From NCBI GenBank assembly GCA_023133415.1, contig JAGLWM010000002.1, forward strand, positions 24,081 to 88,080: DNA of 64,000 nucleotides. The letters are read 5' to 3'. Position 1 is the first letter of the stretch; each line of letters begins with the position of its first letter. The stretch is from Candidatus Pacearchaeota archaeon. GTDB lineage: Archaea; Nanobdellota; Nanobdellia; Pacearchaeales; GW2011-AR1. The position numbers and the translations under genes were made by a program. Below are positions 6,481 to 59,650 of this stretch, one piece after another. The notes below the pieces were generated by a model, which saw only the letters and a list, made by a program, of their open reading frames with translations, did no database searches and was not told the DNA's origin.

Positions 6481-7458
6481 TTATCTTGTTTGGAATTCTA
6501 TTATGTCTTTGTCTTTTAGTATGTGGTCTAGTCCAATTACTTGACCGCCGAATTTTGATGAGGGTCCCCATACTTTTGCTCGTTTAATTTTTTTTGACAT
6601 TCCTTTTAGGATTTTTTCTGCGGCGTCGTGGAAAGTTGTATCTTTTTTTAGTATCATTGGCTCTTTGCTAGGATCCTTTTTCGGTTCTTTTGTATAGACT
6701 CGGATGATTGGGAATGTTTCGAAGATTTTTTGTTTTAAATGTTTTAGTTGTATTTTAGTTGGAGAGTTTGAAAAGAAAACATAGGAGAGATTCTTGTATT
6801 TTGATTTTAGTGTTGCTTCAATTTTTCGCTTTTCCTTTTCTGAGAGGAGGTCTTCTTTATTGTAAATTATAATTATTTTTGCGTGGGTTCTGTAGATGTG
6901 TTTTTCGGCTTTTTTGATTTGATCGAGGTTGTCGATTATGAGGAGGAGGGTATCTGTTGAGTTGATGAGTGATTTGTCGTGATTTGGAAAAGAGGGTTGG
7001 TCGATGATCTGGATTAATGCGTCTTCGAAATGGAAGGTTCCGAGTTGATGTCGGTGAGTTGTGAAGGGATAGGGGGAGGTTTTAGTTTCTTGGTTTGTTA
7101 GAGTTTTGAAGATTGTTGATTTGCCGGTGTTTGGGAATCCTGCGAGGACGCATTGCATGTCGGCTTTTTTGATTCCGATTTGTGTTGATTTGCCAGATTT
7201 TTTTTGTTTGGCTATGGAGGTTTTTAGTTTTTTGTAACGATTGGTTAGATTTTTTCGCATGTTTTCAGAGGATTTGTGTTTTGGGACTTCTTTCATCATA
7301 ATTTCTAGGTATGCGAGTCTTTCTTCGTCTGTTGTTGCTTCTTGGAATTCCTGCTCGGCTTTTTGGTAGAATGGGGATTGGTTTGTTGATGCTATGATTT
7401 CTTTCTCTTTAGAAAAAATTTCTCTTCCACCCAAAATGGCGTACCTCTGTTGAGGCAA
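6481..7458 (-). CDS. DRG-family GTP-binding protein with C-terminal TGS domain
   Basis: G1 GFPNTGKST, G2 FTT, DQPS motif, TGS-like C-terminus. N-terminal 20 aa overlap a module-A repeat, so the true start may be downstream. Confidence 0.75.
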   Translation of the reverse strand: MPQQRYAILGGREIFSKEKEIIASTNQSPFYQKAEQEFQEATTDEERLAYLEIMMKEVPKHKSSENMRKNLTNRYKKLKTSIAKQKKSGKSTQIGIKKADMQCVLAGFPNTGKSTIFKTLTNQETKTSPYPFTTHRHQLGTFHFEDALIQIIDQPSFPNHDKSLINSTDTLLLIIDNLDQIKKAEKHIYRTHAKIIIIYNKEDLLSEKEKRKIEATLKSKYKNLSYVFFSNSPTKIQLKHLKQKIFETFPIIRVYTKEPKKDPSKEPMILKKDTTFHDAAEKILKGMSKKIKRAKVWGPSSKFGGQVIGLDHILKDKDIIEFQTR

Positions 7459-7607
7459 AGTAGAGAAACTTATTTTCCAAAACTGCGTTTTGATTTAGTT
7501 CCATGATTTCTTTAATACTGGAAGGTTTAAGAGAGTTGTGTCGGCGGCGAGGTGTTTGGGTAATGGGTTTTAGTAAGGTTATTAAATGTGTATGTTTTTA
7601 GAAACTT

Positions 7608-8036
7608 ATGGAGAAGGCGGTTATTTGGTTGAGTGTTTTTATTTTGTTGATTGGGGGAGTTGTAGCGCAGGATGGTTGGGGAGAGATTAATATTGAGGAT
7701 TCGGGGGTTGATGCTCAGATGCCAGGTGAGATGCCAAGTGAGATGCCAGGTGAAATGCCAGGTGAGATGCCAGGTGAGATGCCAGGTGAGATGCCAGGTG
7801 AGATGCCAGGTGAGATGCCAAGTGAGATGCCAGGTGAGGCGGTAGAGGGTGAGGTGCAACAAGAGGTTTTATTGCCTGACGAAAGGGGGGATGGGGAACG
7901 GGTAGCAGTGTCAGGGAATGGGAAATTTTATACTACGGATTTTTATATTGCCTTAGGGATAGGTCTTTTTATTTTAGTTGTAATTGGTATTGTGATTTTC
8001 TTTTTGATTCGAGGACCAAAGAATAAGTGGAAGTAG
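7608..8036 (+). CDS. Secreted acidic repeat protein (MPGE/MPSE x10) with C-terminal TM anchor
   Basis: Signal peptide, 12-nt tandem repeat at 7719-7838, C-terminal TM plus basic tail. Confidence 0.6.
7719..7838 (+). repeat. 12-nt tandem repeat (ATGCCAGGTGAG)x10 inside the CDS
   Basis: Directly visible in sequence. Confidence 0.9.
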
Positions 8037-8039
8037 GGG

Positions 8040-8245
8040 TTCACTTTATGGAAAGGTTCAGCTTTGCTGGAAAGGCTTAATCGCTGTTGCGATTGGAAAA
8101 GCTCATGCTTTGCGTGGGGGCTTGGCTGTTAGTGGTTTAAATGTTGCGGTCGCTTGGCATATTCCTAATTGCTTGGCAGTTCTGCGTACCTCAAATTGCG
8201 GAGTATCGGGGTGAATAAAGGGGTACGGTTTGTCCGCGTTAAGAA
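8040..8245. repeat. Full-length module-B repeat
   Basis: The 5' half matches 25230-25300. The 3' core matches 4560-4680. Confidence 0.8.
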
Positions 8246-8266
8246 AAGATTAGTAAAGTTGTTAAA

Positions 8267-8956
8267 TTGAGGTTTCTTTTTAATCTTATGAAGCTGGGTA
8301 TTTTGTTTAGTGGAGGGAAGGATTCGACTTTGGCAGTTTGGATTGCGAAGAAAGAGGGTTATGAATTAGGATGTTTGATTTCGGTTGTTTCTAGAAATAA
8401 GGAGAGTTTTATGTTTCATGTGCCGTCGATTAAGAGTGTTGTGGCGCAGGCGGATGTTATGGGAGTGCCTTTGATTTTGAAGGAGACCACAGGGGTTAGG
8501 GAGAAAGAGCTAATAGATTTGGATATCGCTATTGAGGAGGCTCGGGATAGATTTGGAATTGAGGGCGTCGTGACGGGGGCTGTTTGTTCAGTTTATCAGG
8601 CTTCGAGAGTTCAGAAGATTTGTAATAAGTTGGGACTAGAATGCTTTAATCCTCTTTGGCAAAAGGATCAGGTTGAGTTGTTGAGGGAGTTGATTGCGGA
8701 AAAATTTGAAGTGATTGTTGTTGGTGTTGCGGCTTATCCTTTGGATGAAAAGTTTTTAGGGAGGGAAGTTGATAGTGAGTTTATTAATGAGATGGTGAGG
8801 CTGAAGGAGAAGTTTGATATTAATCCGGCTGGAGAGGGTGGAGAATTTGAGAGTTTTGTTTTGGATTGTCCTTTGTTTGAGAGGGGATTAGAGGTGAAGA
8901 GTTTTGAGGATTTTGGGGAGGGGAATTCTTGGAGAAGGGAGATTGAGACAGAATGA
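8267..8956 (+). CDS. Dph6/MJ0570-family PP-loop ATPase (diphthine-ammonia ligase-like)
   Basis: SGGKDS PP-loop. EGGEFESFVLDCPLF resembles the GEYHT.VLD.PLF motif. Start probably at Met 8288. Confidence 0.65.
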   Translation: MRFLFNLMKLGILFSGGKDSTLAVWIAKKEGYELGCLISVVSRNKESFMFHVPSIKSVVAQADVMGVPLILKETTGVREKELIDLDIAIEEARDRFGIEGVVTGAVCSVYQASRVQKICNKLGLECFNPLWQKDQVELLRELIAEKFEVIVVGVAAYPLDEKFLGREVDSEFINEMVRLKEKFDINPAGEGGEFESFVLDCPLFERGLEVKSFEDFGEGNSWRREIETE

Positions 8957-9480
8957 TATTGATTGTTAATGTTTGTTCTGAGAAATTGCATTATTATGAG
9001 TTTGTGAAGCCAATCGAGGATATTTTGAAAGAGGACTTTTTTGTGAAGCATTATTCTGAGTTGAATGATAGCGATTTGGTTAGGGCTGACAGGGTGATTA
9101 TTTGTGGAACGAGTTTGGGAGATGATTCGTTTTTGAAGGATTTGGAAAAATTTAATTGGATTAAAAATTTTGATAAGCCGTTGCTTGGGATTTGTGCCGG
9201 GTTTCAGATTTTGGGTTTGGTTTTTGGTGGAGAATTAAAAAAGAAATTAGAGATTGGATTTTTTCGTGAGACTTTTGAGAAAGAGTTTTTAGGATTAGAG
9301 GGAGACGTTGAAGTTTATCATTTGCATAATAATTATGTTGAGTTTGGGGGAGAGTTTGAGATTTTTGCCGGGAAGAGTTTTCCGCAGGCTGTGAGGTTTA
9401 GGGGCAAGGATTTTTATGGGGTTTTGTTTCATCCGGAAGTTAGGCAGAAAGAAATGATTTTGAGGTTTGTTGGAAAATGA
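8953..9480 (+). CDS. Class I glutamine amidotransferase-like protein
   Basis: GICAGFQ nucleophile-elbow motif and FHPE. Overlaps the upstream gene by 4 nt. Confidence 0.55.
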   Translation: MILIVNVCSEKLHYYEFVKPIEDILKEDFFVKHYSELNDSDLVRADRVIICGTSLGDDSFLKDLEKFNWIKNFDKPLLGICAGFQILGLVFGGELKKKLEIGFFRETFEKEFLGLEGDVEVYHLHNNYVEFGGEFEIFAGKSFPQAVRFRGKDFYGVLFHPEVRQKEMILRFVGK

Positions 9481-10199
9481 GTTTGATTGAGAGCGTTAAG
9501 AGGAAGAAGGAGTTTTCTATGTTGCCAGATTCTATCGTGGAGCGAGCGCTGAAGGAATCTGGTGAGGATGTTAAAGAGGCTCGGAAGTTGCTTCGGAAAT
9601 ATTTTGGAGTTTTTTTGACGAATCGAGTTTTGAAGGGAAGGGGAGATTTGTTAGGGATTCATATATCGTCGAAGAAGAGGGATTATGAGGATTTTTATTT
9701 TAGGATTTTTGAAGGTATGGATAAAATTAGGAGTGTTGTTGATTTAGGCTGTGGGGTAAATGGATTTTCGTATGAGTATTTGAGAGATGTTATTGGGGAT
9801 GTTGATTATATTGGGGTTGAAGCTGCGGGGCAGTTGGTTGAATTAATGAATAAATATTTTGAGGAGAATGAGTTTAGTGCCTGGGCGATTAAGGGGGACT
9901 TGTTTGATATTGATGGGGTTGTTAAAATATTGGAGAAGAGCGCTAAGCCGAGGGTTGTTTTTTTGTTTCAGGTTGTTGATGCTTTGGAGAGTATGGAAAG
10001 AAATTTTTCTAAGAAGTTTATTTTGAAAGTGATGGAGGGATGTGAATGGATGGTTATTAGTTTGCCATTGGTGAGTTTGGGTGGGAGGAAGAAATTTGAG
10101 GTGAGCAGGAGGTGGTTGGTTGATTTTTTAGAGGAGGAGTTTATTGTCGAAAAGGATTTTGAGATGTTTGGGGAAAGGATTTTGATTTTTAGGAGGTGA
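9477..10199 (+). CDS. Putative SAM-dependent methyltransferase
   Basis: VVDLGCGVNG matches class-I MTase motif I. Otherwise unassigned. Confidence 0.35.
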   Translation: MSLIESVKRKKEFSMLPDSIVERALKESGEDVKEARKLLRKYFGVFLTNRVLKGRGDLLGIHISSKKRDYEDFYFRIFEGMDKIRSVVDLGCGVNGFSYEYLRDVIGDVDYIGVEAAGQLVELMNKYFEENEFSAWAIKGDLFDIDGVVKILEKSAKPRVVFLFQVVDALESMERNFSKKFILKVMEGCEWMVISLPLVSLGGRKKFEVSRRWLVDFLEEEFIVEKDFEMFGERILIFRR

Positions 10200-10236
10200 T
10201 AGTTAGTTATTTAAATTCGGATATTTTTTTGTTGGT

Positions 10237-11148
10237 ATGGTTATATATGTTATCGGACATAAGAGTCCGGATAGTGATTCGGTTTGTGCGGCCTTGGCTG
10301 TTGCGGATTTGAAGAGGCAGTTGGGGGATGATGTCGAGGCTCGGGTTGCTGGAGAGATTAATTCGGAGAGTCGGTTTATTTTGGAGAAGTTTGGAGTTGG
10401 TGTGCCTGATATTTTGGAGGATGCGAGTGGTAAAGAGATTATTTTGGTCGATCATACGGATTTGTCGCAGGCTGTTGTTGGCATGGAGAACGCGGAGATT
10501 GTGGGGATTGTTGATCATCATAAGCTTGGGGATGTTACTACAAGCAAGCCGCTCGAGATTTTGGTTCGGCCGCTTGGGAGCACTTGCACGATTATCAAGG
10601 GATTGTTTGATTATTATGAGAAGAGGATTTCTAGGGAAATTGCGGGGTTGATGCTTTGTGCGATTTTGAGTGATAGTGTTATTTTTAGGTCGCCGACGAC
10701 TACAGATGAAGATAGGAGGGTTGCTCGTGAGTTGGCGGAGATTGCAGGGATCGAGAATTTGGAAGAGTTGGGGATGGAGATGTTTAGGGTAAAGTCTGAG
10801 GTTGAAGGGGTTTTGGCGAGGGATTTGGTAATGAGAGATTATAAGGATTTTGAGATGGGCGGGAAACGGATAGGTATTGGGCAGTTGGAGTTGGTTGATT
10901 TGGAGTTGGTTGCCGGAATTAGAAATGAGTTATTGGAGGAGATGAGGAAGTTGAAGGATGAAGGGAGGCATGCGGTGTTTTTGATGTTGACGGATATTAT
11001 GAAGGAAGGAACGGAATTGCTTTGTGTTTCGGATGAGGAAGGTTTGAGAGAGAGGGTTTTTGGAGATAGTGAGGATGGATGGCTTGAGGGAATGATGAGT
11101 CGGAAGAAGCAGGTGGTGCCTGAACTTGAAAAATATTTTTCAAGTTAG
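10237..11148 (+). CDS. ppaC: Family II (Mn-dependent, DHH/DHHA2) inorganic pyrophosphatase
   Basis: GHKSPDSDS, VDHH, LTDHT-like and SPTT motifs. Collinear with PpaC. Confidence 0.8.
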   Translation: MVIYVIGHKSPDSDSVCAALAVADLKRQLGDDVEARVAGEINSESRFILEKFGVGVPDILEDASGKEIILVDHTDLSQAVVGMENAEIVGIVDHHKLGDVTTSKPLEILVRPLGSTCTIIKGLFDYYEKRISREIAGLMLCAILSDSVIFRSPTTTDEDRRVARELAEIAGIENLEELGMEMFRVKSEVEGVLARDLVMRDYKDFEMGGKRIGIGQLELVDLELVAGIRNELLEEMRKLKDEGRHAVFLMLTDIMKEGTELLCVSDEEGLRERVFGDSEDGWLEGMMSRKKQVVPELEKYFSS

Positions 11149-11220
11149 GTGTTGGTATTAGGTCGCTTTGTATATATTTATATTAGAAAGTTATTTAAGT
11201 AAGGCTGATAATTTTTTGTT

Positions 11221-12471
11221 ATGGAATTTGAAAAAAGGGTTTTGGCGAATGGGTTGACGGTTTTGTTTGAGAAGCGGGATGTTGATGTGACTAGTGTGAT
11301 GTTGGGCGTGAAGTATGGGTCGGCTTATGATTCTATTGAGGAGAAGGGGATGGCGCATTTTATTGAGCATTTGTGTTTTAAGGGGACGAAGAAGCGGACA
11401 GCGAAGCAGATTGTTGATGAAGTTGAGAAGATTGGAGGGGAGGTGAATGCTTTTACTCATGAAGAGATTACGGCTTATTATGTTAAGTTGTCGTCGGAGC
11501 ATTTGGATGTGGCAATGGATGTGATTTTTGATATTTTTTTTAGTCCTGTTTTTCCTGAGGGGGATGTTGGAAGGGAGGCGAGTGTTATCTGTGAGGAGAT
11601 TAAAATGGTTAGAGATAATCCGATGAGACATGCATTGGAGAAAATTAAGGAAAATTTGTATGAGGAACCATTCGGGTTTTTTGGTGGCGGGAGGGCTGAG
11701 GTTGTTCGGCGAATGACAAGGAATCAATTGAAGGGGAGGCATGATGAGGTTTATCTTCCTGAGAATTCGGTTCTTTGTGTTGTTGGGAATAATGATTTTA
11801 GCGAGATAATTTCCCTTGCAGAGAAACTTACTTTGGGGGTCAGAAGTCAGAGGTCGGAAGTCGGGGCCGCTCGGCACACCCCAAATACTCTGAGTTCTGG
11901 GGCGAGTCAGAAGTTGGAGGTGCCGGAGATTGTTGGGAAGATTGTTAAGAATGATGAAAAGAGGGCGGGTTTGGAGCAAGCGAATGTTGTGCTTGGTTTT
12001 CATTTTCCGATGGCGAGCGATAAGGAGCGTTATGCTGCGGAGGTTTTTTCGGCGATTTTGGGGCAGGGGATGAGTTCAAAGCTTTTTGCAGAGGTCCGAG
12101 AGAAGAGGGGTTTGGTTTATGGGGTAAAAACGGATTTGGATATGGGGAAGAATTATGGCTATATGGTGATTTGGGCTGGGACAGATCCAGTGAAGGTTGA
12201 GGAGGTGAAGAGTATCTGTTTAGAGGAGTTTGGGAAGATGGGGGAGATTACTGAGGCTGAGTTGGAGGAAGCGAAGGCTCAGGTTGTTGGGAATTGGAAG
12301 GTTGAGTCAGAGGGGTCTAGTGAGACGGCTGTGAATTTGATTATGGAGGAGATTGCAGGGGATGCTAGGGAGTATTATGATTATGAGGATAGAATTGGTG
12401 AGGTGACGCTTGAGGATATTAAGAAGTTGGCTGGGAAGACTGAGTTCGCTTCGTTTAGTTTGGGGCCATGA
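11221..12471 (+). CDS. M16-family zinc peptidase (pitrilysin-like) carrying an in-frame module-B repeat insertion
   Basis: HFIEH inverted zinc motif. Repeat-derived segment at about 11838-11910 is translated as GVRSQRSEVGAARHTPNTLSSGAS. Confidence 0.75.
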   Translation: MEFEKRVLANGLTVLFEKRDVDVTSVMLGVKYGSAYDSIEEKGMAHFIEHLCFKGTKKRTAKQIVDEVEKIGGEVNAFTHEEITAYYVKLSSEHLDVAMDVIFDIFFSPVFPEGDVGREASVICEEIKMVRDNPMRHALEKIKENLYEEPFGFFGGGRAEVVRRMTRNQLKGRHDEVYLPENSVLCVVGNNDFSEIISLAEKLTLGVRSQRSEVGAARHTPNTLSSGASQKLEVPEIVGKIVKNDEKRAGLEQANVVLGFHFPMASDKERYAAEVFSAILGQGMSSKLFAEVREKRGLVYGVKTDLDMGKNYGYMVIWAGTDPVKVEEVKSICLEEFGKMGEITEAELEEAKAQVVGNWKVESEGSSETAVNLIMEEIAGDAREYYDYEDRIGEVTLEDIKKLAGKTEFASFSLGP

Positions 12472-12493
12472 TAGTTAATTTTAAAAGTTGTAA

Positions 12494-12940
12494 ATGTTTT
12501 TGAGTGTTATGAATTCTTATCAAATAAGGAGTGCTAAGTTAACCGAATCTAAAAAGATTTATTTAGATATTTTAAAGAGGTCTGGTCGAGAGGCATATAA
12601 TGAGCAACTTATTCGTGATTTAATTAAAGACGATTTCTCTATTTGTTTGGTTGCAAAAAAGGCGGGAGAGATTGTGGGTACACTAGGTGCAAGAAGAGAG
12701 GGATATAGGGCATATTGGTTGTATTTTTTGCACTCCAAGGAAGAGGATGATGGTGAAATTGAGGAGTTATTAATGAAAAATTTTTTGGGGACGGTAAAAA
12801 TAAAAAATGCAAATAAGATTGCTTCTGATACTCCTGAAATTAAATTGCTTAAAAGATTTGGTTTTAATGAAGTTGGGAGAATTCCAAAATGGCAGTCGGA
12901 TGGGAAGGATCAAGTAATAATGTTTAAAGAATTAAAGTGA
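12494..12940 (+). CDS. Possible GNAT-like acetyltransferase
   Basis: Weak fold-level resemblance only. Confidence 0.25.
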   Translation: MFLSVMNSYQIRSAKLTESKKIYLDILKRSGREAYNEQLIRDLIKDDFSICLVAKKAGEIVGTLGARREGYRAYWLYFLHSKEEDDGEIEELLMKNFLGTVKIKNANKIASDTPEIKLLKRFGFNEVGRIPKWQSDGKDQVIMFKELK

Positions 12941-13196
12941 ATTAGTTTTGAGTGCTAATGTATAATTTTAAATTCTGTTTTAATGATTTATTTTATGAAA
13001 ATCTTAGTGTGTCGAGGGTTAATGTTTTAGGGAAGATTGATATTGAGAAAATGGGAGAAAAAGTTTTGGCGGGGATGATAAGATTTATAGAGACATGATT
13101 CATGAAATTGCATCGAGAGTTGAAGTTGTTGTCATAGATAATTCTTTTGTGAAAAGTAAATATTCAATCGACTTAGGATATTTTATTGAATAGTTT

Positions 13197-25199: not shown

Positions 25200-25414
25200 T
25201 TTGATTTTTTTGGAGAGGTTTTCTGTACGGATAAATTCAGCTTTGCTGGAAAGGTTCACCTCATGGAGAAGTTCATGCTTCGCATGGAGGCTTGGTTGGT
25301 TGAAAAGATTTTTGAATGAAAGAGTTTTTGCGTTTTTATGAGAAAATTGTTTTGGGTTGTAATTGGTGCTGAGCAGGAAGGCTTTGTGTATAAAGTAGCC
25401 TCTGTGTATAAAGT

Positions 25415-25858
25415 CTAGAACTGTAAATTAGCTCCCATATGCTTTGTAACTTCCAAAACTATCTTATCAAAGGTTTTTCCTAAATTAAATTCACCAATAA
25501 ATCTATCAACATCTCCATTTATATGTTCTTTGAATAACCTTGTTGGGGCATCAACTCTTAGTATATCTTTAACAAGTTTTTTTGCCTTATCATTAATCAT
25601 TTCAGCATCAATAGGCAATCTATTTATCTGATTATATGTTCCATGGGGACTAGTAATGGGTATAGCAGTGAAATACTTTTCTCTTTTTATTTTTTCTTTG
25701 TCTGAGAGAACTAGAAATGGATGTCTACTTTTTGTACCCGTATTTAATCCATCAATATTTTTATATTTTCCATCTGTTTGAATATTAACCTTCCTCCCCT
25801 CTAGACAACAATTAAACATTAATACCATTCCCCGTTCTATATTTGGAAAAAGTGGCAT
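25415..25858 (-). CDS. PemK/MazF-like toxin-fold protein
   Basis: RHPFLVLSD...AIPITS resembles the MazF/Kid core. Confidence 0.4.
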   Translation of the reverse strand: MPLFPNIERGMVLMFNCCLEGRKVNIQTDGKYKNIDGLNTGTKSRHPFLVLSDKEKIKREKYFTAIPITSPHGTYNQINRLPIDAEMINDKAKKLVKDILRVDAPTRLFKEHINGDVDRFIGEFNLGKTFDKIVLEVTKHMGANLQF

Positions 25859-25859
25859 A

Positions 25860-26090
25860 TTAAAATATTAAGAATTTTAATTCATTCGGAGATTCTTCTA
25901 TTACATTCCTTGTAACCTTACAGATAGAGGCACCAGAAATAAAAGAATCCATAATCATTGTAGTAAGTGCAAAGGAAGGATATTCTCCAGTCTCTTTATC
26001 TAAAAACTCTTTCATCTTATCGAATAATTCTTTTTCATTTATTTGTTCTTTTTTTTCTATTAACAAAACTTCTTCAAGATACTCACACAT
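25860..26090 (-). CDS. Small hypothetical protein (possible toxin partner)
   Basis: 76 aa. Overlaps the upstream Panacea gene by 8 nt. Confidence 0.3.
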   Translation of the reverse strand: MCEYLEEVLLIEKKEQINEKELFDKMKEFLDKETGEYPSFALTTMIMDSFISGASICKVTRNVIEESPNELKFLIF

Positions 26091-26541
26091 CTAAATACTC
26101 TCCACTTTTTAATTCTTCTAATATCTCTTTTATTTGAGTCTCTTTATCTGAAAAATCTGTATGCTTTTCTTTGATTATTCTTATTATTTCATCTTCGGAA
26201 CAATTTAACTTTTTAAGGTAGTGAATTGAAGCCACAACTTCCAACCAAAAATTTTCTTTCCCATTGATAAAATTTAAAAAATTATTAAATTTATTCTCCA
26301 TAGATTCATCTTCAAATTTTATCTTATCCAAAGATTCAAAATCTACATTAAAACCATCTTTTGTAAGCTGGATTGAATATGGTCCATAATGATACCAATT
26401 AAATTCATATCCGATATTTAAATCAAACATACTCTGAAGTATATATGTGAACTTTTGTAATTTTAATCTGTTTTCAAAAGAAAACATATCAAAAGAATCA
26501 TATTTCCTATTTATTAATCCCGCTATAATATTTGGATTCAT
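26083..26541 (-). CDS. Panacea (DUF4065, SocA/GepA-like) domain protein
   Basis: LKLQKFTYILQ...WYHYGPY matches the Panacea antitoxin domain signature. Confidence 0.55.
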   Translation of the reverse strand: MNPNIIAGLINRKYDSFDMFSFENRLKLQKFTYILQSMFDLNIGYEFNWYHYGPYSIQLTKDGFNVDFESLDKIKFEDESMENKFNNFLNFINGKENFWLEVVASIHYLKKLNCSEDEIIRIIKEKHTDFSDKETQIKEILEELKSGEYLDV

Positions 26542-26655
26542 ATTAAAATTACTTTTATCACCCTTTATAAAATATAATGTATTCTAATGTTTATAAATAT
26601 AATGTATTTTTTCAGGTACCTAAATCTTTAAGTAGTTCAGGAACCTGAATTTACT

Positions 26656-26820
26656 ATGAAGATTCGTAAAGTCTTAGACAAAAAAGTTGGTGAAACGGAA
26701 TACTCAAAGTATCTTGTTACACTCCCAAAGAATATAGTTTTAGAATCAAAACTTTTAGGAGAAGACGTTGAAGTAGTTCTAAAAAACGATAAAATAATTC
26801 TTCAGAAAAAGAAAATCTAG
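26656..26820 (+). CDS. AbrB/MazE (SpoVT-AbrB swapped-hairpin) small DNA-binding protein, 54 aa
   Basis: Not in the ORF track (below 60 aa). LVTLPKNIVLESKLLGEDVEVVLKNDKIIL. Flanked by TTCAGGTACCTGAA-type palindromes. Confidence 0.5.
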   Translation: MKIRKVLDKKVGETEYSKYLVTLPKNIVLESKLLGEDVEVVLKNDKIILQKKKI

Positions 26821-26923
26821 TCTAATTTCTAATTTAAGCATTAAATAAATTCAGGTACCGAAACATTTATATATCTAGCATTTGCTATTCAGGTACCTGA
26901 TATTACTCGGGAATTAAGACAAA

Positions 26924-28165
26924 ATGGAACAAGTATTAAAAACAAAATGGAAGCAAATGAATAGAGAGGAGCGAGGCAGACTACTCTACAACACCGTTAA
27001 AATAGTTAAAACTTCTACAGGTTGGAAAGTCCCTTCTCAAACACGAGGTGGCTCTGGAGACAGATACACTGTTAGATTTAATGGACATAAGCCTAAGTGT
27101 AATTGTCCAGATTGTTATATGAGAAAGAAAAAATGTAAACATATCTATGCAGTAGAGTTTTATATTAAACAAGAAATAAACAAAGAAGGTAGATTAAAAC
27201 AAACAAAGGGAATAAGAGTAACTTACGGGCAAAAATGGAATGCCTATGACAAATCACAAACTAACGAAAAATTAGTTTTTATGAAACTCCTAAAAGATTT
27301 AACAACTTTCGTTGAGCAACCTAAATATAAATTCGGTCGTCCAACTTTACCAATGTCCGAAATGGTTTTTAATTCGGTTATGAAAATCTATTCAACTTTC
27401 TCTCTTAGAAGATTCATGTCAGATAGCAAGATTGCGAAAGAATTTGGCTTGATTAATTTTGTGCCTTGTTATTCTTCAATTGGGCATTTTTTACAAAAAA
27501 AGGGATTGACTCCTGTTTTGATTAACCTAATTAAAACTAGTGCTTCTCCATTAAAAGACGTTGAAACTGATTTTGCTTGTGATGCTTCTGGTTTTTCGAC
27601 TTCAAGATTTGCCAGGTGGTTTGATACAAAATGGGGTAAAGAAAAGAAATATAGAATTTGGTTAAAAGCACACATTTGTTCTGGAGTGAAAACGAATATT
27701 ATAACTTCTGTAGAAATTACAGAGGGTCACGCAAATGATAGTCCTCAGCTTTCTTCATTAGTTCGGCAAACTGTCGAGCGGTTTGAGGTGAGGGAAGTTA
27801 GCTGTGACCGAGCATATAGTTCTAAGCAGAACTTACAGCTCATCGCAGATGAGGGGGCAACCCCCTTCATCCCCTTTAAATCAAATGTAAAAGGAAAACG
27901 TACTGGCGGTGGTGCTTGGAAAAAGATGTATCATTATTTTATGTATAAACATGAAGAATTTCTAAAGCATTATCACAAGCGTTCAAATGTCGAGACTTGT
28001 TTTCATATGATTAAAACTAAATTTAGGGACAATCTCCGAAGTAAAACCCAGACTGCTCAAGTTAATGAATTGCTTTGTAAAATTTTAGCACATAATATTT
28101 GTGTTGTGATTCAGGAAGTTAATGAGCTTGGACTTAGTGGGGAGTTTGTTGTGGAGGAAAAATGA
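26924..28165 (+). CDS. IS4/IS5-like DDE transposase with N-terminal SWIM zinc finger
   Basis: CNCPDCYMRKKKCKH zinc finger. YHKRSNVETCFHMIK fits the Y(2)R(3)E(6)K signature. Acidic DDE residues. Confidence 0.65.
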   Translation: MEQVLKTKWKQMNREERGRLLYNTVKIVKTSTGWKVPSQTRGGSGDRYTVRFNGHKPKCNCPDCYMRKKKCKHIYAVEFYIKQEINKEGRLKQTKGIRVTYGQKWNAYDKSQTNEKLVFMKLLKDLTTFVEQPKYKFGRPTLPMSEMVFNSVMKIYSTFSLRRFMSDSKIAKEFGLINFVPCYSSIGHFLQKKGLTPVLINLIKTSASPLKDVETDFACDASGFSTSRFARWFDTKWGKEKKYRIWLKAHICSGVKTNIITSVEITEGHANDSPQLSSLVRQTVERFEVREVSCDRAYSSKQNLQLIADEGATPFIPFKSNVKGKRTGGGAWKKMYHYFMYKHEEFLKHYHKRSNVETCFHMIKTKFRDNLRSKTQTAQVNELLCKILAHNICVVIQEVNELGLSGEFVVEEK

Positions 28166-29661
28166 TTAAAATCCATATTAATTGATTTGTCCTTAATGAT
28201 CCTCTCAGTTACTTCCCTTAATAATTTTCTTAATTGAAATATTTCTATATTTAGTTGGAATATTCCAATATCTTTATTTTTTTCATATTCTTTTTCCAAG
28301 TAATTATCTAAAGATAAATCTGCACTTCGATCAATTTTATTATAATATAATTTAGAAATTTCTTTCTGTTTTTCTTTTGAAAAATTAGGAATCAAAAATT
28401 TAACTAAAATATCAGGAGTTATCGCTGGGACTGTTCCCTTACATACGTATTTTTTTATAAGTTTTTGAAAAATCTGACTTGAAAAATAACAAAGAACAAA
28501 AATTTTAGTATGTATTTCACCATCAATGAATATCCCAGATGTACTTTGATTAATATATGTTTTTCCGAGAACTTTTTCATCGTAGAAAAATATATCCCCC
28601 ACACTTCCCCTAGATCCAAATATTAAATCTCCATCTTTTAGGGTATTATTCATCTTAGTATGCACCCATAATTCTTTTTGTAATATATTTTTATGGATGT
28701 TTTTTGGACTTAACCACAAATAAGATTCTTGGGACATATTATCTTTCGGATAATAGTAATCTTTTGGGGTTTGTCCAGTTTTAATATCCTCTAATGAAAT
28801 ATGAAAATACCCGCCACTATAATTTCTAATTAAGCTATTAATTTCCTTAAACTCTTCTCCATATAATCCAGTATCCAACCTACCCTCTTTTTTAATTTGT
28901 GAGATTTTTGGATAGTTAAATTTTGAATCATTTTTAATCTGATTTTTAATCAGTTCTTGTTTAATCTCTTGTTCAATTAAATCATTTTTTATTTTAATCT
29001 GATTTTCTTTGTCAATAATATTTTGAACCATGAACGAAACATATTCTTCTATTTTTTTGGGATAGGGGTGATTTTTTTTAGTAGGATAAGGAATATTTAT
29101 ATTTAAGAATCTTTTACCACCACGCCTCATAAGTCCAGCTCTTGGAACCTCTAAGTCACAAGCCTCTTGACCATATATATCCTTTAATAATGCAAATAAA
29201 TAAAATTTATTTATTCCAGGTTTCAATTCTAACTTAAACATATGGCTACTAAAATTATGATTAAGTTTATTTTTAGCTAATGCACATGCACCAATACTTT
29301 TATTGCTTCCAGTAGAAGTATAAATAATATCAAATTTTTGAATGTTTCTAAATTTATTTATTTTGAATGATTTATTCTTTTCGGGATTAATATATTCAAA
29401 ACAATTTGGACATTCAGAGTCTAATAAAAATTGCTCTCCAGTTAGAGATGCAGTTTTTAAATATTTAGAACTTGTATCAAAATCAACAAATTCCTCCTCA
29501 CTCATATCATTACCCTTTCCCACGTCAACCAATAAATCACTAAGTAATCTCATATTGGTATTCTTTAAAATAGTTTTGAAATCGGAAGCACTTAGGGAAC
29601 TCTCTTTATTAAATATTGTAGAAATTTTTACACTTTTCTGATCACTTACATAGCTTTCCAT
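28111..29661 (-). CDS. R-M specificity subunit (HsdS/BcgI-B-like, two TRDs)
   Basis: TRD-terminal motif ITPDILVKFLIPNFSKEKQKEI, central coiled coil. Sits immediately downstream of the MTase gene. Confidence 0.6.
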   Translation of the reverse strand: MESYVSDQKSVKISTIFNKESSLSASDFKTILKNTNMRLLSDLLVDVGKGNDMSEEEFVDFDTSSKYLKTASLTGEQFLLDSECPNCFEYINPEKNKSFKINKFRNIQKFDIIYTSTGSNKSIGACALAKNKLNHNFSSHMFKLELKPGINKFYLFALLKDIYGQEACDLEVPRAGLMRRGGKRFLNINIPYPTKKNHPYPKKIEEYVSFMVQNIIDKENQIKIKNDLIEQEIKQELIKNQIKNDSKFNYPKISQIKKEGRLDTGLYGEEFKEINSLIRNYSGGYFHISLEDIKTGQTPKDYYYPKDNMSQESYLWLSPKNIHKNILQKELWVHTKMNNTLKDGDLIFGSRGSVGDIFFYDEKVLGKTYINQSTSGIFIDGEIHTKIFVLCYFSSQIFQKLIKKYVCKGTVPAITPDILVKFLIPNFSKEKQKEISKLYYNKIDRSADLSLDNYLEKEYEKNKDIGIFQLNIEIFQLRKLLREVTERIIKDKSINMDFNHFSSTTNSPLSPSSLTS

Positions 29662-29663
29662 TT

Positions 29664-31853
29664 TTAATTAATTTTATTTAAATGGAAAGCATTTTTAATT
29701 TCTTCCTCTTGTCTCTTCAAAAATTCTTTAAAATCTTCTCTCAAGCTTGTAAAATCTTCATTACGATTACTAGTTTTTTCGAAAGTATTTTGATCAATTA
29801 TAAATGTTGGACTAAACTGTACAACCCTATTTTTAGTCTTAACCTCATAGCCAATATTTTTAACCTCTTTAGTGAAAACTTCATAATCTGATTTAAGAAT
29901 TTTTTTTATTTCATTAGGTTTAGGCTTATAGGCGATAATTACTGTTGTTGCAACACCTGTTTCTCCAAAGGTGTTTCCAGGCAGATCAAATAGTGCCACA
30001 ATTCGCATTCGGTTGATTATCCATCTTCGGATATTTTTCCATTCTTTTATGGAAGCAATTGAATTAGATAGAACAATCCCCATTCTTCCGCCTTCTTCAA
30101 GTAATTTGTAAGAATTTTCTAAAAATAATACTCCCATATCCATAGACTTCGGTAAATTGCCTGGCTTCCCATCTTTCTTCTTATCTGGTTTTTCTTTATA
30201 TGTTTGATAAAGTTCAATTGTTTCTTTTGGTAAATCCCATTTCCCTTTAGCTCCTGTTTTTAAATCCCTACCCTTACCAAATGGAGGGTTGGTTGCAATA
30301 ACTTTATATTTTTTAATCTCAATATTATTATCACTTAAATTCTCCCAAGTTTCTGGATTAAAATTTTTAGTAGTAAAATATCCTGCTTTCATAATTTTTC
30401 CATTTTCTAATAATTTTTGAGAGAGGGAATCCATTTGTTCAAGAGTTGCTCCTCCATCTCCATTTAGCACCAAGTTTAGTTCTGCAAGTTTTAAGTTACT
30501 GCCCTCTATATCAAAACCATAGAAATGGCTTGCATTATCTGGAAAATCCTTCTCTTTCCTATAAGAATGTCTAAATGCCATCGCTGGGAAATCTGCGATT
30601 CCACAACAGGGATCACAAAGTTCTTCTCCAGGAATAGGATTTAATAATTTGATTATATTTTGCACGACAGGAATAGGGGTAAAAAATTGTCCCTTGTCAG
30701 CTTTTTGTTTTTCATCCCCGAAATTATTAAAAATAATTTGATTAAAACTCTCGCTTTTAGCTTTTAAGATTGCTCTTTGTTGAAACGCTTCAATTAATGC
30801 TATTAAGAATTTTTCATCGTTTGAGTCACTAGATTTAAAATCCTTACTATAATTAAATGAGGGTTTAGATAAAACATTTCCATATTCCCTTTTTGCATCT
30901 TTATATAGTTGATTTATTCTTTCCTTAAAACTTTTCTCTGCTAATCCATCAACTCTTTTTTCTGAAGGTAAAATATAGAATTGTAAATTAGACTTATTTT
31001 TTATACTTCTTTTTTCATCAAAGACTTTCAATGTTAAAAACTCTACTATTAAACTTCTCACAGGACTCTTTGGTTTAATTTTATCATTTTCTCTTTTTAA
31101 AACATGCATCAAGTCTGTAAAGGTACTTTCATCAATAACATCTAAGGAGTCAAATTTTAATTTTGCCAGATTAGAAATACTCTCATTGTTCTCAATAAAG
31201 TCTTTCTGGCAAGGTAGATTAATCAACAAATCTCTATTTTGGATATTTATATCATGTAGCCCTTCCTCTTGCAATTCTCTGTCCTCATAGAATCTTCGCA
31301 AATCAGAATTACCCAACTTTTTTAATATAATTACTTCTTCCTTGTCATCAAAATAAATACCAAAAATCCTATCTTTTGAGGTATTCTTTTCCATCATTGA
31401 GTGCAATTGATTCTCTATAACTGATTGAACATTATCCCCTTGCTTTTTTTTAGCCTCAAAAACAACCAACATCATTTTATTCATTTCTCTGAAATCTTTG
31501 TTTTGTTTTGCTTTTTCATAAGTCTTTAACCATTCTTTCTCTTTGAACACTACTATATCTGCCCTAAGTGGAGTCTTTGTATTTCCTTTTGGCTGGCTAA
31601 ATTCTACACAGATATATTCCTTGTTATATGTCCCAGAATTAACCATGCTCCAAGTCATTCTTGCCCGAAACCATTCTTCAGAAAAATTTCCTTTAGCGTC
31701 TTTTGTTTTTGCCTTTGAGCAAAATGCACTAATATTAAGTTCTTTTTCGTACCAATCTTTATCAATTAAATCTAGTTTTGAATACTTTGACTCAAACTTT
31801 CTAAAATAATCCTGGAATTTTTCATCACTCATCTTCTTCCTCCCAGCAAACAT
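29664..31853 (-). CDS. BcgI-A-like Type IIB R-M subunit: N-terminal PD-(D/E)xK endonuclease (HSDR_N-like) fused to gamma-class N6-adenine methyltransferase
   Basis: RADIVVF...VVFEAKKK (D/ExK). MTase motif I DPCCGIADF and motif IV NPPFG. 729 aa. Confidence 0.65.
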   Translation of the reverse strand: MFAGRKKMSDEKFQDYFRKFESKYSKLDLIDKDWYEKELNISAFCSKAKTKDAKGNFSEEWFRARMTWSMVNSGTYNKEYICVEFSQPKGNTKTPLRADIVVFKEKEWLKTYEKAKQNKDFREMNKMMLVVFEAKKKQGDNVQSVIENQLHSMMEKNTSKDRIFGIYFDDKEEVIILKKLGNSDLRRFYEDRELQEEGLHDINIQNRDLLINLPCQKDFIENNESISNLAKLKFDSLDVIDESTFTDLMHVLKRENDKIKPKSPVRSLIVEFLTLKVFDEKRSIKNKSNLQFYILPSEKRVDGLAEKSFKERINQLYKDAKREYGNVLSKPSFNYSKDFKSSDSNDEKFLIALIEAFQQRAILKAKSESFNQIIFNNFGDEKQKADKGQFFTPIPVVQNIIKLLNPIPGEELCDPCCGIADFPAMAFRHSYRKEKDFPDNASHFYGFDIEGSNLKLAELNLVLNGDGGATLEQMDSLSQKLLENGKIMKAGYFTTKNFNPETWENLSDNNIEIKKYKVIATNPPFGKGRDLKTGAKGKWDLPKETIELYQTYKEKPDKKKDGKPGNLPKSMDMGVLFLENSYKLLEEGGRMGIVLSNSIASIKEWKNIRRWIINRMRIVALFDLPGNTFGETGVATTVIIAYKPKPNEIKKILKSDYEVFTKEVKNIGYEVKTKNRVVQFSPTFIIDQNTFEKTSNRNEDFTSLREDFKEFLKRQEEEIKNAFHLNKIN

Positions 31854-31998
31854 AAACTTTTTTCCCAGCTAAATTCTCAGGTAAATATATTTTAGATGCA
31901 GAATTGCCATTTTTGCTTGGAGCTTTCTCTAAACATCTATTAAAATTAATTTTCTTAAGAACAATTTCACCTTTTATAATTTTTATTTCGCTTTCCAT
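31825..31998 (-). CDS. Small AbrB-like protein (57 aa), possible controller of the R-M operon
   Basis: Not in the ORF track. MESEIKIIKGEIVLKK...KIYLPENLAGKKVYV. Overlaps the start of the A-subunit gene. Confidence 0.35.
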   Translation of the reverse strand: MESEIKIIKGEIVLKKINFNRCLEKAPSKNGNSASKIYLPENLAGKKVYVCWEEEDE

Positions 31999-32090
31999 TG
32001 TAGCTACTAATAGCTTTTAATAGCTACCAACCTTTATAAACATTGTTCAGGTACCGAAACATTTATAAGTTTAAACTACAATAAGTAGCC

Positions 32091-32600
32091 ATGATAAACA
32101 AAGTAAGAAAAATAGCAGAAGATGTCTTTAGCTCACTTGGAAGCGGATATGCCGAAGAGGTCTACGAGAAAGCAATGGAAGTAGGTTTGAGGCTGGAAAA
32201 GATTCCTTACGAAAACCAAAGAGTTCTACCAGTATTTTACAAAAACTTCGCTGTGGGTATGTCTAAGCCTGATTTAATAATCAAAGATACCGAAGGAGGA
32301 GAAAAAATTATTTTAGAACTTAAAGCCACACCATCCGCAACTGGAATGAAAGAAGAGGTTCAATTACAGAAATATCTTCAAACTCTAAAAATGAAAAAAG
32401 GAATTATTATTAATTTCCCTCAAACTAACAAAGATGGTCCAGGTGCAGAGATTGAATTTAAGGAAGTTAGCGATGAGTTAAATAAGTGTGATAAATGTGG
32501 AAAAATTCTTTGTCATGGAGCTGAGTGTGAAACATGTGTTAAGGAAGAAGCTAAAAGATTGAAGGAAGCTGAGAAGAAAGAGAAGGCTGTGGATGAATGA
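32091..32600 (+). CDS. GxxExxY-family (PD-(D/E)xK-like) protein with C-terminal CxxC zinc ribbon
   Basis: LGSGYAEEVYEKAM...IILELKA. Two CxxC pairs. Confidence 0.6.
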   Translation: MINKVRKIAEDVFSSLGSGYAEEVYEKAMEVGLRLEKIPYENQRVLPVFYKNFAVGMSKPDLIIKDTEGGEKIILELKATPSATGMKEEVQLQKYLQTLKMKKGIIINFPQTNKDGPGAEIEFKEVSDELNKCDKCGKILCHGAECETCVKEEAKRLKEAEKKEKAVDE

Positions 32601-32920
32601 ATCAAGTGGACGAATTTTATGGAATTGTTAGAATAATTTTCCTCGTACTAGGTGGTATTCTTATAGGGTTTCTTCTTTGGCACCCTAGTCAGAATGATTA
32701 TGTTAGTAAAATAGATTATAATTTACTTTATCAAGATTATCAAGAATTACAGCAAGAAAATCAAGAGATAAAAGAGGATATTGGAAAGTTATTGATTGAA
32801 TATTATGGGAAACCTATCGTGTGGGATATTATTGGAATTACTAAATATAAAAAAGGTTTGTGTGCTTTAAAAATAGTATTAAAGGAAGAGATTCCATTAA
32901 TAAATAAGTTACCTTGTTAA
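32597..32920 (+). CDS. Small membrane protein
   Basis: Single TM plus coiled region. Inside the mobile element. Confidence 0.35.
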   Translation: MNQVDEFYGIVRIIFLVLGGILIGFLLWHPSQNDYVSKIDYNLLYQDYQELQQENQEIKEDIGKLLIEYYGKPIVWDIIGITKYKKGLCALKIVLKEEIPLINKLPC

Positions 32921-32923
32921 AGA

Positions 32924-33208
32924 ATGAGTATAAATTTAATTGTCTTAGGATTAAGTCTTGATTTTTTCGGAGTTGCTATATTAATATTAGTAACTCTCTT
33001 TGGAACTTGGCATCAAAAAGTTCACACAGCAAAGTGGAGCAAAAAATATTATTGGGAGGGGAGAATATTTGATTTTAGAAAATTTCCTCCAAGATTGAGG
33101 AAAGTTTTGAAATATGGATTCATTCCTCCTAAGCATATGTGGAATTCAGTCGGCTTCTTATTAATTGGTTTAGGCTTCTTGCTTCAAATAATAGGAAATC
33201 TTAGATAA
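32924..33208 (+). CDS. Small membrane protein (2 TM)
   Basis: Inside the mobile element, just before the right TIR. Confidence 0.35.
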   Translation: MSINLIVLGLSLDFFGVAILILVTLFGTWHQKVHTAKWSKKYYWEGRIFDFRKFPPRLRKVLKYGFIPPKHMWNSVGFLLIGLGFLLQIIGNLR

Positions 33209-33300
33209 GTTTCTGTGTATAAAGTAAGCTCTTATTTAGACTTTATACACAAAGCTGAGCAGGAAGATAATTTTATAAAGATTGGACTGTTTAAAACGAT

Positions 33301-59559: not shown

Positions 59560-59650
59560 GGGTTTTGATGACGATTTTGGTTTTTAAGGTTTGGGGTTTC
59601 TTAGGCTTTGTGTATAAAGTCTGAATAAGGACTTACTTTTTACACAGGAA

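Follow-up and report, generated by a model that had tools for sequence, protein, structure and literature searches.

Organisation and conservation of the A-B-C locus

The stretch of DNA analysed here, referred to as the window, is a 64,000-nucleotide segment of contig JAGLWM010000002.1 from the metagenome-assembled genome of a Candidatus Pacearchaeota (DPANN) archaeon, and it carries three consecutive minus-strand genes, named A, B and C, which adjoin the left terminal inverted repeat of a 7.9-kb insertion of low GC content. An earlier note, made from the sequence alone, had described three co-oriented minus-strand genes at the left end of an element, and both the position and the coordinates were found to be exact, including an overlap of 8 nucleotides (nt) between the first two genes. 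Gene A (26083-26541) encodes a protein of 152 amino acids (aa), gene B (25860-26090) one of 76 aa and gene C (25415-25858) one of 147 aa, as given in the list of open reading frames (ORFs). The products are 100% identical to the NCBI proteins KAT36_00850, KAT36_00845 and KAT36_00840, respectively, each of which is annotated as 'hypothetical protein'. The NCBI call of C is shorter, at 137 aa; the start at 25858 was favoured because the 'FPNI..G' N-terminus of the 147-aa version is kept in C homologues.

The ATG of B lies within the last codons of A (ATGTGTGA), and a single nucleotide separates the stop codon of B from the start codon of C (TAATATG). There is no space before B or C for promoters of their own. 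A putative archaeal promoter of the operon was predicted from the sequence upstream of A at 26564-26599 on the minus strand, where two TATA-like boxes (TTTATAAA) lie inside a duplicated AATACATTATATTT(A/T)TAAA. The proximal box is approximately 27 nt upstream of the A start codon, which implies a leaderless or near-leaderless transcript. Given the TATA-like box before A and the lack of room for internal promoters, the three genes look like a single, translationally coupled operon that is leaderless or nearly so.

An alignment of A homologues was used to scan one genome per species together with the metagenomes of the Joint Genome Institute (JGI), which gave 91 loci. The hosts named in the records were Pacearchaeota, Woesearchaeota, Nanobdellati and metagenome-assembled genomes labelled Methanosarcinales. 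Forty-one of these loci, the window included, contained an A homologue scoring at least 140 bits, and in this close-A set B and C were sought using profile models. B was detected in 34/41 loci and C in 30/41, in the order A, B, C without exception. Intact B and C followed A in 26 of the 34 close-A loci that had at least 700 nt of contig downstream; two of the others were degenerate (L004 and L013) and six had other genes after A. The junctions between A and B were mostly -8, -4 or -1 nt and those between B and C mostly -4 to +6 nt. Across the loci near A homologues, B was only ever found together with C where the contig allowed.

Rough Nei-Gojobori estimates of the ratio of nonsynonymous to synonymous substitution rates (dN/dS) were 0.24 for A, 0.38 for B and 0.49 for C, values that are indicative only as the synonymous rate was saturated, and they suggest that all three genes are under purifying selection with A the most constrained. 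The recurrence of the order A, B, C, the translational coupling and a dN/dS below 1 in each case show that all three are real genes and that none is a chance ORF. The mean column identity of the family alignments was 60% for A, 33% for B and 27% for C. Word-based protein searches returned one homologue of B and no homologue of C, and relatives of B and C were otherwise recovered from the neighbourhoods of A homologues only.

Family relationships of the three proteins

The earlier note had read gene A as a Panacea (DUF4065) domain. Annotation of A as DUF4065 by direct matching was ruled out, as the Pfam, NCBIfam and PHROG scans contained no DUF4065 match. The Pfam model PF13274 (DUF4065/Panacea) gave no match to A and 25 close homologues at E<=1, and none to 10 longer distant relatives of A at E<=0.01; these sequences did not match any other Pfam family either. 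The sequence of A does contain RLKLQKFTY and YGPY, which correspond to a Panacea-type central helix and GP hairpin, the features that have been singled out for Panacea (PMC8832971). The profile of A was compared with eight genuine PanA/SocA-domain proteins, including the validated PanA of Burkholderia prophage phi52237, using hhalign, and the two were aligned with a probability of 86% and E=5e-6 over the N-terminal 70 columns, a region that includes the LQK..Y helix and the GP hairpin. Across 66 diverse A relatives, residues R25, Q29, K30 and G53 were invariant and P54 nearly so.

The only meaningful matches of A were to DarG. The PADLOC DarG profile matched A with E=2.3e-8 at profile positions 179-217, and the NCBIfam DarG model matched 56 of the 66 diverse relatives with a best E of 2.4e-8; A itself scored 24.5 on this model against a cut-off of 250. 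The AlphaFold2 model of A had a predicted local distance difference test score (pLDDT) of 94 and a predicted template modelling score (pTM) of 0.90, and consisted of a helical domain with one beta-hairpin. When this model was searched against the PDB using Foldseek, the best match was 7yk3_B (probability 0.92, template modelling (TM) score 0.56, E 0.37), the DarG chain of the M. tuberculosis DarTG complex (PDB 7YK3), and there was no other credible match. The same chain was first among the PDB matches of the 66-relative profile (E=1.1e-3), in an alignment covering two signature segments, L.IQK..Y....F..(Y)GPYS and (L)E(L)LAS.H.

DarG therefore provides the best sequence and structural match of A, with the common motifs L.IQK..Y, YGPYS and (L)E(L)LAS.H. 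The C-terminal domain of DarG has a helical fold and inhibits, by binding it, a toxin that modifies nucleic acids, and DUF4065 proteins are homologous to this DarT-inhibiting domain (PMC13621843). There are also clear differences, as A is a single-domain protein without the N-terminal macrodomain (ADP-ribosyl glycohydrolase) of DarG, there is no adjacent DarT, its neighbours are B and a MazF-like C, and the structural match is modest. We conclude that A is a stand-alone member of the DarG C-terminal domain/Panacea superfamily that is nearer to the C-terminal domain of DarG than to PF13274 and belongs to a large family without a Pfam model. The Panacea label given in the earlier note thus held at the level of the superfamily but not for membership of PF13274, and the nearest characterised relative is the DarT-binding C-terminal domain of DarG.

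The A family comprises at least 2,591 clusters at 50% identity (E<=1e-3), some members of which are labelled 'YwgA' by JGI. This large family, which is unseen by the current Pfam model and resembles the C-terminal domain of DarG, links DarG, PanA and the 'YwgA' proteins, and it is common in DPANN archaea, a group whose toxin-antitoxin and defence systems have hardly been studied. A viral origin was rejected, as viral, phage and plasmid collections are essentially without relatives: two weak matches were obtained in IMG/VR and none in the phage and plasmid collections.

The third gene had been described in the earlier note as encoding a PemK/MazF-fold protein, and a MazF/PemK-like identity was supported at the family level. 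C itself matched the Pfam model PF02452 (PemK_toxin) with E=0.0023 and 18.6 bits, below the curated cut-off of 23.1, and the same model matched 15 of 20 C orthologues from other triads with a best E of 6e-7. All eight PDB matches of the C family profile were MazF, Kid or PemK structures (best E=0.02, approximately 95 aligned columns). The near-invariant residues of the family are C17, G21, H46, F48, P67, S70 and R107. In the alignment H46 is found where MazF has 'RP', the 'PITS' segment containing P67 and S70 is found where MazF has 'TG/TS', and R107 lies within 'vl.DR..Ri.k'. C therefore has a histidine at the position of the catalytic arginine of B. subtilis MazF; the canonical archaeal MazF of one sister locus (L036) likewise has a histidine at that first position. 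C is basic, with an isoelectric point (pI) of 9.4. On these family-level matches C was accepted as a divergent MazF/PemK-family protein and a putative endoribonuclease toxin.

B had no match in Pfam, NCBIfam, PADLOC or PHROG and no meaningful match in the PDB. The top PDB match, a designed pentatricopeptide repeat (PPR) protein, was set aside as an artefact of repeats or low complexity in which no stretch was accepted. Neither an AbrB/SpoVT (MazE) fold nor any other known antitoxin fold was found in these five collections, and the Pfam and NCBIfam scans contained no DNA-binding signature. B is acidic, with a pI of 4.5 and a net charge of -7.5, and A is also acidic. A single residue of B, D48, is invariant and lies within the motif 'fAl.sMi.Ds', which is followed by a strand-like segment, 'sIFKv', and by a C-terminal tail with a conserved aromatic residue that is often preceded by proline (..P..F..). 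Inspection of the sequence revealed no obvious hydrophobic, membrane-spanning stretch and no enzymatic motif. B fits a cognate antitoxin and not a toxin, because it is small, acidic, fast-evolving and encoded directly upstream of the toxin gene, and from these sequence properties it is most likely a cognate neutraliser or adaptor.

Proposed division of roles within the triad

The genes that accompany A differ among the sister loci. In one (L036) A is followed by a 139-aa protein without known family and a canonical MazF (PF02452, 3.7e-23), and in two others (L040 and L043) by a 128-aa protein and a ParE-like toxin (6.8e-11). A 68-aa protein and a PIN protein (2.8e-5) follow A in L074 and L079, and in L046 a 134-aa protein with a DUF5678 segment is placed between A and a 139-aa protein. 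Two loci have a single partner: in L060 A is followed by a PIN-like protein with no middle gene (PF01850, E=0.0027, below the cut-off), and in L008 a RelE/ParE-like protein (PF05016, E=0.012, also below the cut-off) precedes A. More distant A genes are followed by an HD-domain protein of 420-460 aa (L053, L055, L056, L059, L061, L066, L068, L070, L082, L087 and L088); the partner in L053 was identified by Pfam (HD and HD_assoc_2) and the remainder by size, with visible HD motifs in L066 and L088. The pairing of an A-family gene with an HD-domain gene is also the arrangement at the B. subtilis ywgA locus, and may represent an uncharacterised regulator- or inhibitor-enzyme pair. The A family is promiscuous in the manner of Panacea. 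Across the three-gene loci the middle gene changes along with the type of toxin while A stays similar, so the middle protein behaves like a cognate antitoxin.

From the gene structure, conservation, family relations and genomic context that were observed, we infer the toxicity of C, the binding partners and the biological role as follows. The operon would be cargo at the end of a transposon-like element and would encode a toxin-antitoxin or defence module that is type II-like and has three parts. C would be the toxin, presumably a sequence-specific endoribonuclease, and B, made by translational coupling just before C, would neutralise it specifically, probably through its C-terminal strand and P..F tail in the way that short linear antitoxin segments act on MazF-type toxins. 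A would be the conserved partner of B, serving as a scaffold, stabiliser or trigger sensor, and the two proteins together would do the work of a multidomain PanA antitoxin whose parts are made as separate polypeptides. C would be set free, and would arrest the cell, if the element were lost or if a trigger acted on A or on B. This split antitoxin, with B as the toxin-specific neutraliser and A as the conserved platform or sensor, is the reading favoured here, and we give it about an even chance of being correct.

The proposal follows the logic described for PanA. In multidomain PanA proteins another domain (PAD1, Phd-C or ZBD) neutralises the toxin and Panacea is the proposed sensor, and stand-alone Panacea neutralises toxins directly (Ernits 2023, PMC10440598). 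The pairing of PanA with MazF-like toxins is already known and has been validated experimentally (Kurata 2022, PMC8832971). The triad resembles PanAT in the shared helix and hairpin of A, in the placing of the antitoxin-side gene upstream of the toxin gene, in the diversity of the A-family partners (MazF-like, MazF, ParE-like, PIN and HD, with one weak RelE/ParE-like match) and in having a separate module for neutralisation with the Panacea-type domain as accessory or sensor. It differs in that A and its relatives are invisible to PF13274 and the C-terminal half of A is unaligned with PanA, and in that the presumed neutraliser is a separate, obligatory protein of 70-80 aa encoded after A, whereas in PanA it is a fused N-terminal domain. 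Third genes were rare accessories in the PanA survey, and the triad is hosted by DPANN and other archaea. The features that appear to be new are an obligatory and conserved split into three genes, its recurrence with several toxin families and the large unannotated archaeal A family. Panacea antitoxins best illustrate how a single domain can control many toxins, and whether the domain itself acts as neutraliser or sensor is debated; the triad, in which a Panacea-like domain and the presumed neutraliser are separate proteins, would allow a clean test of one role against the other.

Two further observations hint at a partnership of A and B. The partial rank correlation of pairwise distances was highest for A-B, at 0.49, compared to 0.30 for both A-C and B-C. 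Fused forms of A and B may also exist. Nine A-family proteins (P0096, P0104, P0114, P0117, P0127, P0128, P0130, P0144 and P0159) have C-terminal extensions of 80-120 aa with a motif, '..aiYymL.Da....lvg.niFRp.e..P.pD..', that resembles the core of B (hhalign P=0.003, marginal).

Several observations weigh against the split antitoxin. The B-like motif of the extended proteins is only marginally significant, and P0127 (loci L103 and L104), the sole fused gene that was looked up, is without a coupled toxin gene. No significant shared domain was found between B and the middle proteins of L036, L040, L046, L047, L074 and L038. The distance correlations are uncorrected for shared phylogeny, and the distances of C are near saturation. 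C is itself under the Pfam threshold for PF02452, and a single-sequence AlphaFold2 model of C had a pLDDT of 31 and was unusable. The putative toxin also evolves faster than B and A, which is the reverse of the usual situation in type II systems, where the toxin is the better conserved partner. This faster evolution is unexplained by any reading on offer, and could be the mark of an arms race, provided that the module serves in defence. The candidate roles of A and B are drawn from genomic context and analogy, and stand-alone Panacea proteins can neutralise toxins unaided, so A alone might suffice.

This last point leads to the strongest alternative, a classical two-component PanAT in which A neutralises C directly and B is an accessory, such as an operon regulator, a stabiliser or a second, weaker antitoxin. 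Stand-alone members of the DarG C-terminal domain/Panacea superfamily bind toxins directly (PMC8832971; PMC10440598), there are two-gene A loci with PIN-like, RelE/ParE-like or HD-domain proteins and no middle gene, and a SocA-domain antitoxin (annotated by the Prokaryotic Genome Annotation Pipeline, PGAP) lies directly beside a PemK/MazF toxin on a Rhodococcus plasmid. However, in the A subfamily of at least 140 bits the middle gene is seldom missing, and each toxin type has its own. Between loci in which the identity of C is as low as 35-44%, A keeps an identity of 55-66%, which would be odd if the surface of A had to track C, and the missing DNA-binding signature in B does not favour a regulator. 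The two-component arrangement is a serious possibility, albeit the less probable one.

The split antitoxin was also compared with other characterised systems. Like MazEF, PemIK and Kis-Kid, the locus has a MazF/PemK-like C after a small acidic protein with translationally coupled genes; in contrast B has no AbrB/SpoVT (MazE) signature and there is an extra conserved first gene. Tripartite toxin-antitoxin systems, namely toxin-antitoxin-chaperone (TAC), HipBST, paaR-paaA-parE and omega-epsilon-zeta, likewise have three genes and divide the antitoxin functions between two proteins, and in TAC the tail of the antitoxin docks onto a dedicated helper. A differs from these in being neither a SecB-like chaperone, no SecB match having been obtained in the Pfam and NCBIfam scans or the PDB searches, nor a recognisable DNA-binding regulator, and no homology to components of the four systems was detected. 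HipBST arose through the splitting of one protein (PMC10627512).

A different explanation is that the triad has no role in addiction or defence, with A a nucleic-acid-mimicking regulator of nucleases in general and the triad a regulated RNA-processing unit or a decayed, non-functional remnant. In approximately 11 A loci the partner is an HD-domain protein of 420-460 aa and hence no classical toxin, some loci (L004 and L013) show decay, and the C-terminal domain of DarG is reported to mimic single-stranded DNA (Deep et al. 2023, as cited in PMC13621843). Against this, A, B and C are intact and under apparent purifying selection, the triad is placed on the inner side of the terminal repeat of a mobile element and has restriction-modification genes and a transposase in its neighbourhood, the sister loci contain recognisable toxin families, and the operon architecture is typical of toxin-antitoxin systems. 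We consider this explanation unlikely.

The earlier note had suggested that B could be a new toxin. On this reading B would be neutralised by the Panacea-like A, and C would be a second, separate toxin or an unrelated neighbour. Although Panacea antitoxins pair with many unrelated, unannotated toxins (PMC8832971) and B is without known homologues in the family and PDB searches, this is very unlikely, as B is small and strongly acidic with no obvious membrane stretch or enzymatic motif, co-varies with A, was found only with C where the contig allowed and is coupled upstream of it, and has its position taken by unrelated middle proteins beside MazF, ParE and PIN in the sister loci. The toxin-antitoxin-like triad described in that note was retained with a Panacea-superfamily A and a MazF-like C, and the proposal of B as its toxin was not supported.

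Taken more widely, the split antitoxin may belong to an unannotated, widespread class of loci in archaea and some bacteria, in which A is a conserved hub joined to swappable adaptor-toxin cassettes (MazF-like, MazF, ParE and PIN) and HD nucleotidases, a generalisation that we put forward tentatively. If it is true, the hub would serve all of them as trigger sensor or as nucleic-acid mimic, specificity for the toxin would come from the small middle protein, and such a split-antitoxin architecture would escape discovery pipelines built for two-gene toxin-antitoxin systems.

The carrying element and other features of the window

The insertion that carries the triad extends from approximately 25381 to 33253 (33255 with the full right repeat) and has a GC content of 0.30, compared to 0.38 and 0.40 in the flanks. 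The left boundary (25368-25414) consists of a 13-nt direct repeat, GCTGAGCAGGAAG, at 25368-25380, an inverted repeat, GCTTTGTGTATAAAGT, at 25381-25396 and a subterminal copy at 25398-25414. The right boundary (33209-33266) consists of a subterminal copy at 33209-33225, the inverted repeat ACTTTATACACAAAGC at 33240-33255 and the 13-nt direct repeat at 33254-33266. The terminal inverted repeat is 16 nt long and perfect at both ends, and the direct repeat occurs exactly twice in the window, at the two ends of the element, compared to an expected 0.04 copies. The triad lies 19 nt inside the left inverted repeat, and the subterminal copy ends at the stop codon of C. Besides A, B and C the element contains a MazE/AbrB-like ORF, an IS5-family DDE transposase, a type I-like specificity subunit, an N6/Eco57I-type methyltransferase and a PD-(D/E)XK nuclease; no gene for a restriction (R) subunit was recognised among the element ORFs that were scanned. 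This organisation resembles that of a cargo transposon whose target duplication, or att core, is unusually long. A role as stabilisation or defence cargo would fit the place of the triad, directly on the inner side of the terminal repeat of a transposon that also bears restriction-modification genes.

The region from the transposase through the AbrB-like ORF and A, B and C to the terminal repeat has a collinear counterpart in a metagenomic locus (L014), to which it is 70-73% identical in nucleotide sequence. The flanks of the two are unrelated on both sides, and the homology ends exactly at the outer edge of the repeat. Related transposases adjoin A in four further loci (L012, L018, L025 and L045), and the terminal motif also follows the stop codon of C in L014 (4126-4161) and L024 (approximately 1052-1090). 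The repeat located 3' of C in the window (25379-25414, reading ACTTTATACACAGAGGCT ACTTTATACACAAAGCC in the sense of the operon) is kept after C in L019, L020, L023 and L031, and some metagenomic triads carry it in a degenerate form, TTTTTGTGACA. Because this repeat is kept in several loci, the triads there may also be located at the terminus of an element. The repeat contains ACA, which is the cleavage site of E. coli MazF. A search of IMG/VR with the 16-mer repeat gave 23 single matches, for which the chance expectation was not computed.

The MazE/AbrB (SpoVT)-like ORF is located on the plus strand at 26656-26820 and encodes 54 aa, with a match to PF04014 (E=2e-4) that is below the cut-off. 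It was considered as the true antitoxin of C and ruled out, as it is divergent from the triad, is not adjacent to C and occurs with the triad in L014 only. A palindromic motif, TTCAGGTACC(T)GAA, is present in five copies within promoter regions of the element (26611-26649, 26850-26901 and 32046-32067), two of them between A and the divergent AbrB-like ORF, two before the transposase and one before the PD-(D/E)XK gene. An exact 22-nt repeat, TTCAGGTACCGAAACATTTATA, occurs among these copies at 26850 and 32046. The palindromes may be the operator set of a regulator encoded by the element, possibly the AbrB-like protein.

The transposase and hsdS-like genes are convergent and their 3' ends overlap by 55 nt (28111-28165), with the last 16 or so residues of the specificity subunit encoded inside the transposase gene. 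Truncation of hsdS by an insertion sequence (IS) was considered and dropped, as the transposase is without terminal repeats of its own and the genes may simply converge.

A second low-GC island on the minus strand of the window encodes a 392-aa protein, which by eye looks Cas4/RecB-like, and a 312-aa protein. The 17-nt terminal motif GGCTTTGTGTATAAAGT and a degenerate inverted copy of it are found at 59604-59650, right after the last gene of this island, and a second, related element that extends beyond the window probably ends here. The GC skew is extremely positive, at +0.45 to +0.72, in all parts of the window whose genes lie on the plus strand (for example at 7000-13000 and 33000-56000) and falls below zero in the two low-GC islands; the composition of this DPANN genome is thus very strongly biased by strand or coding strand.

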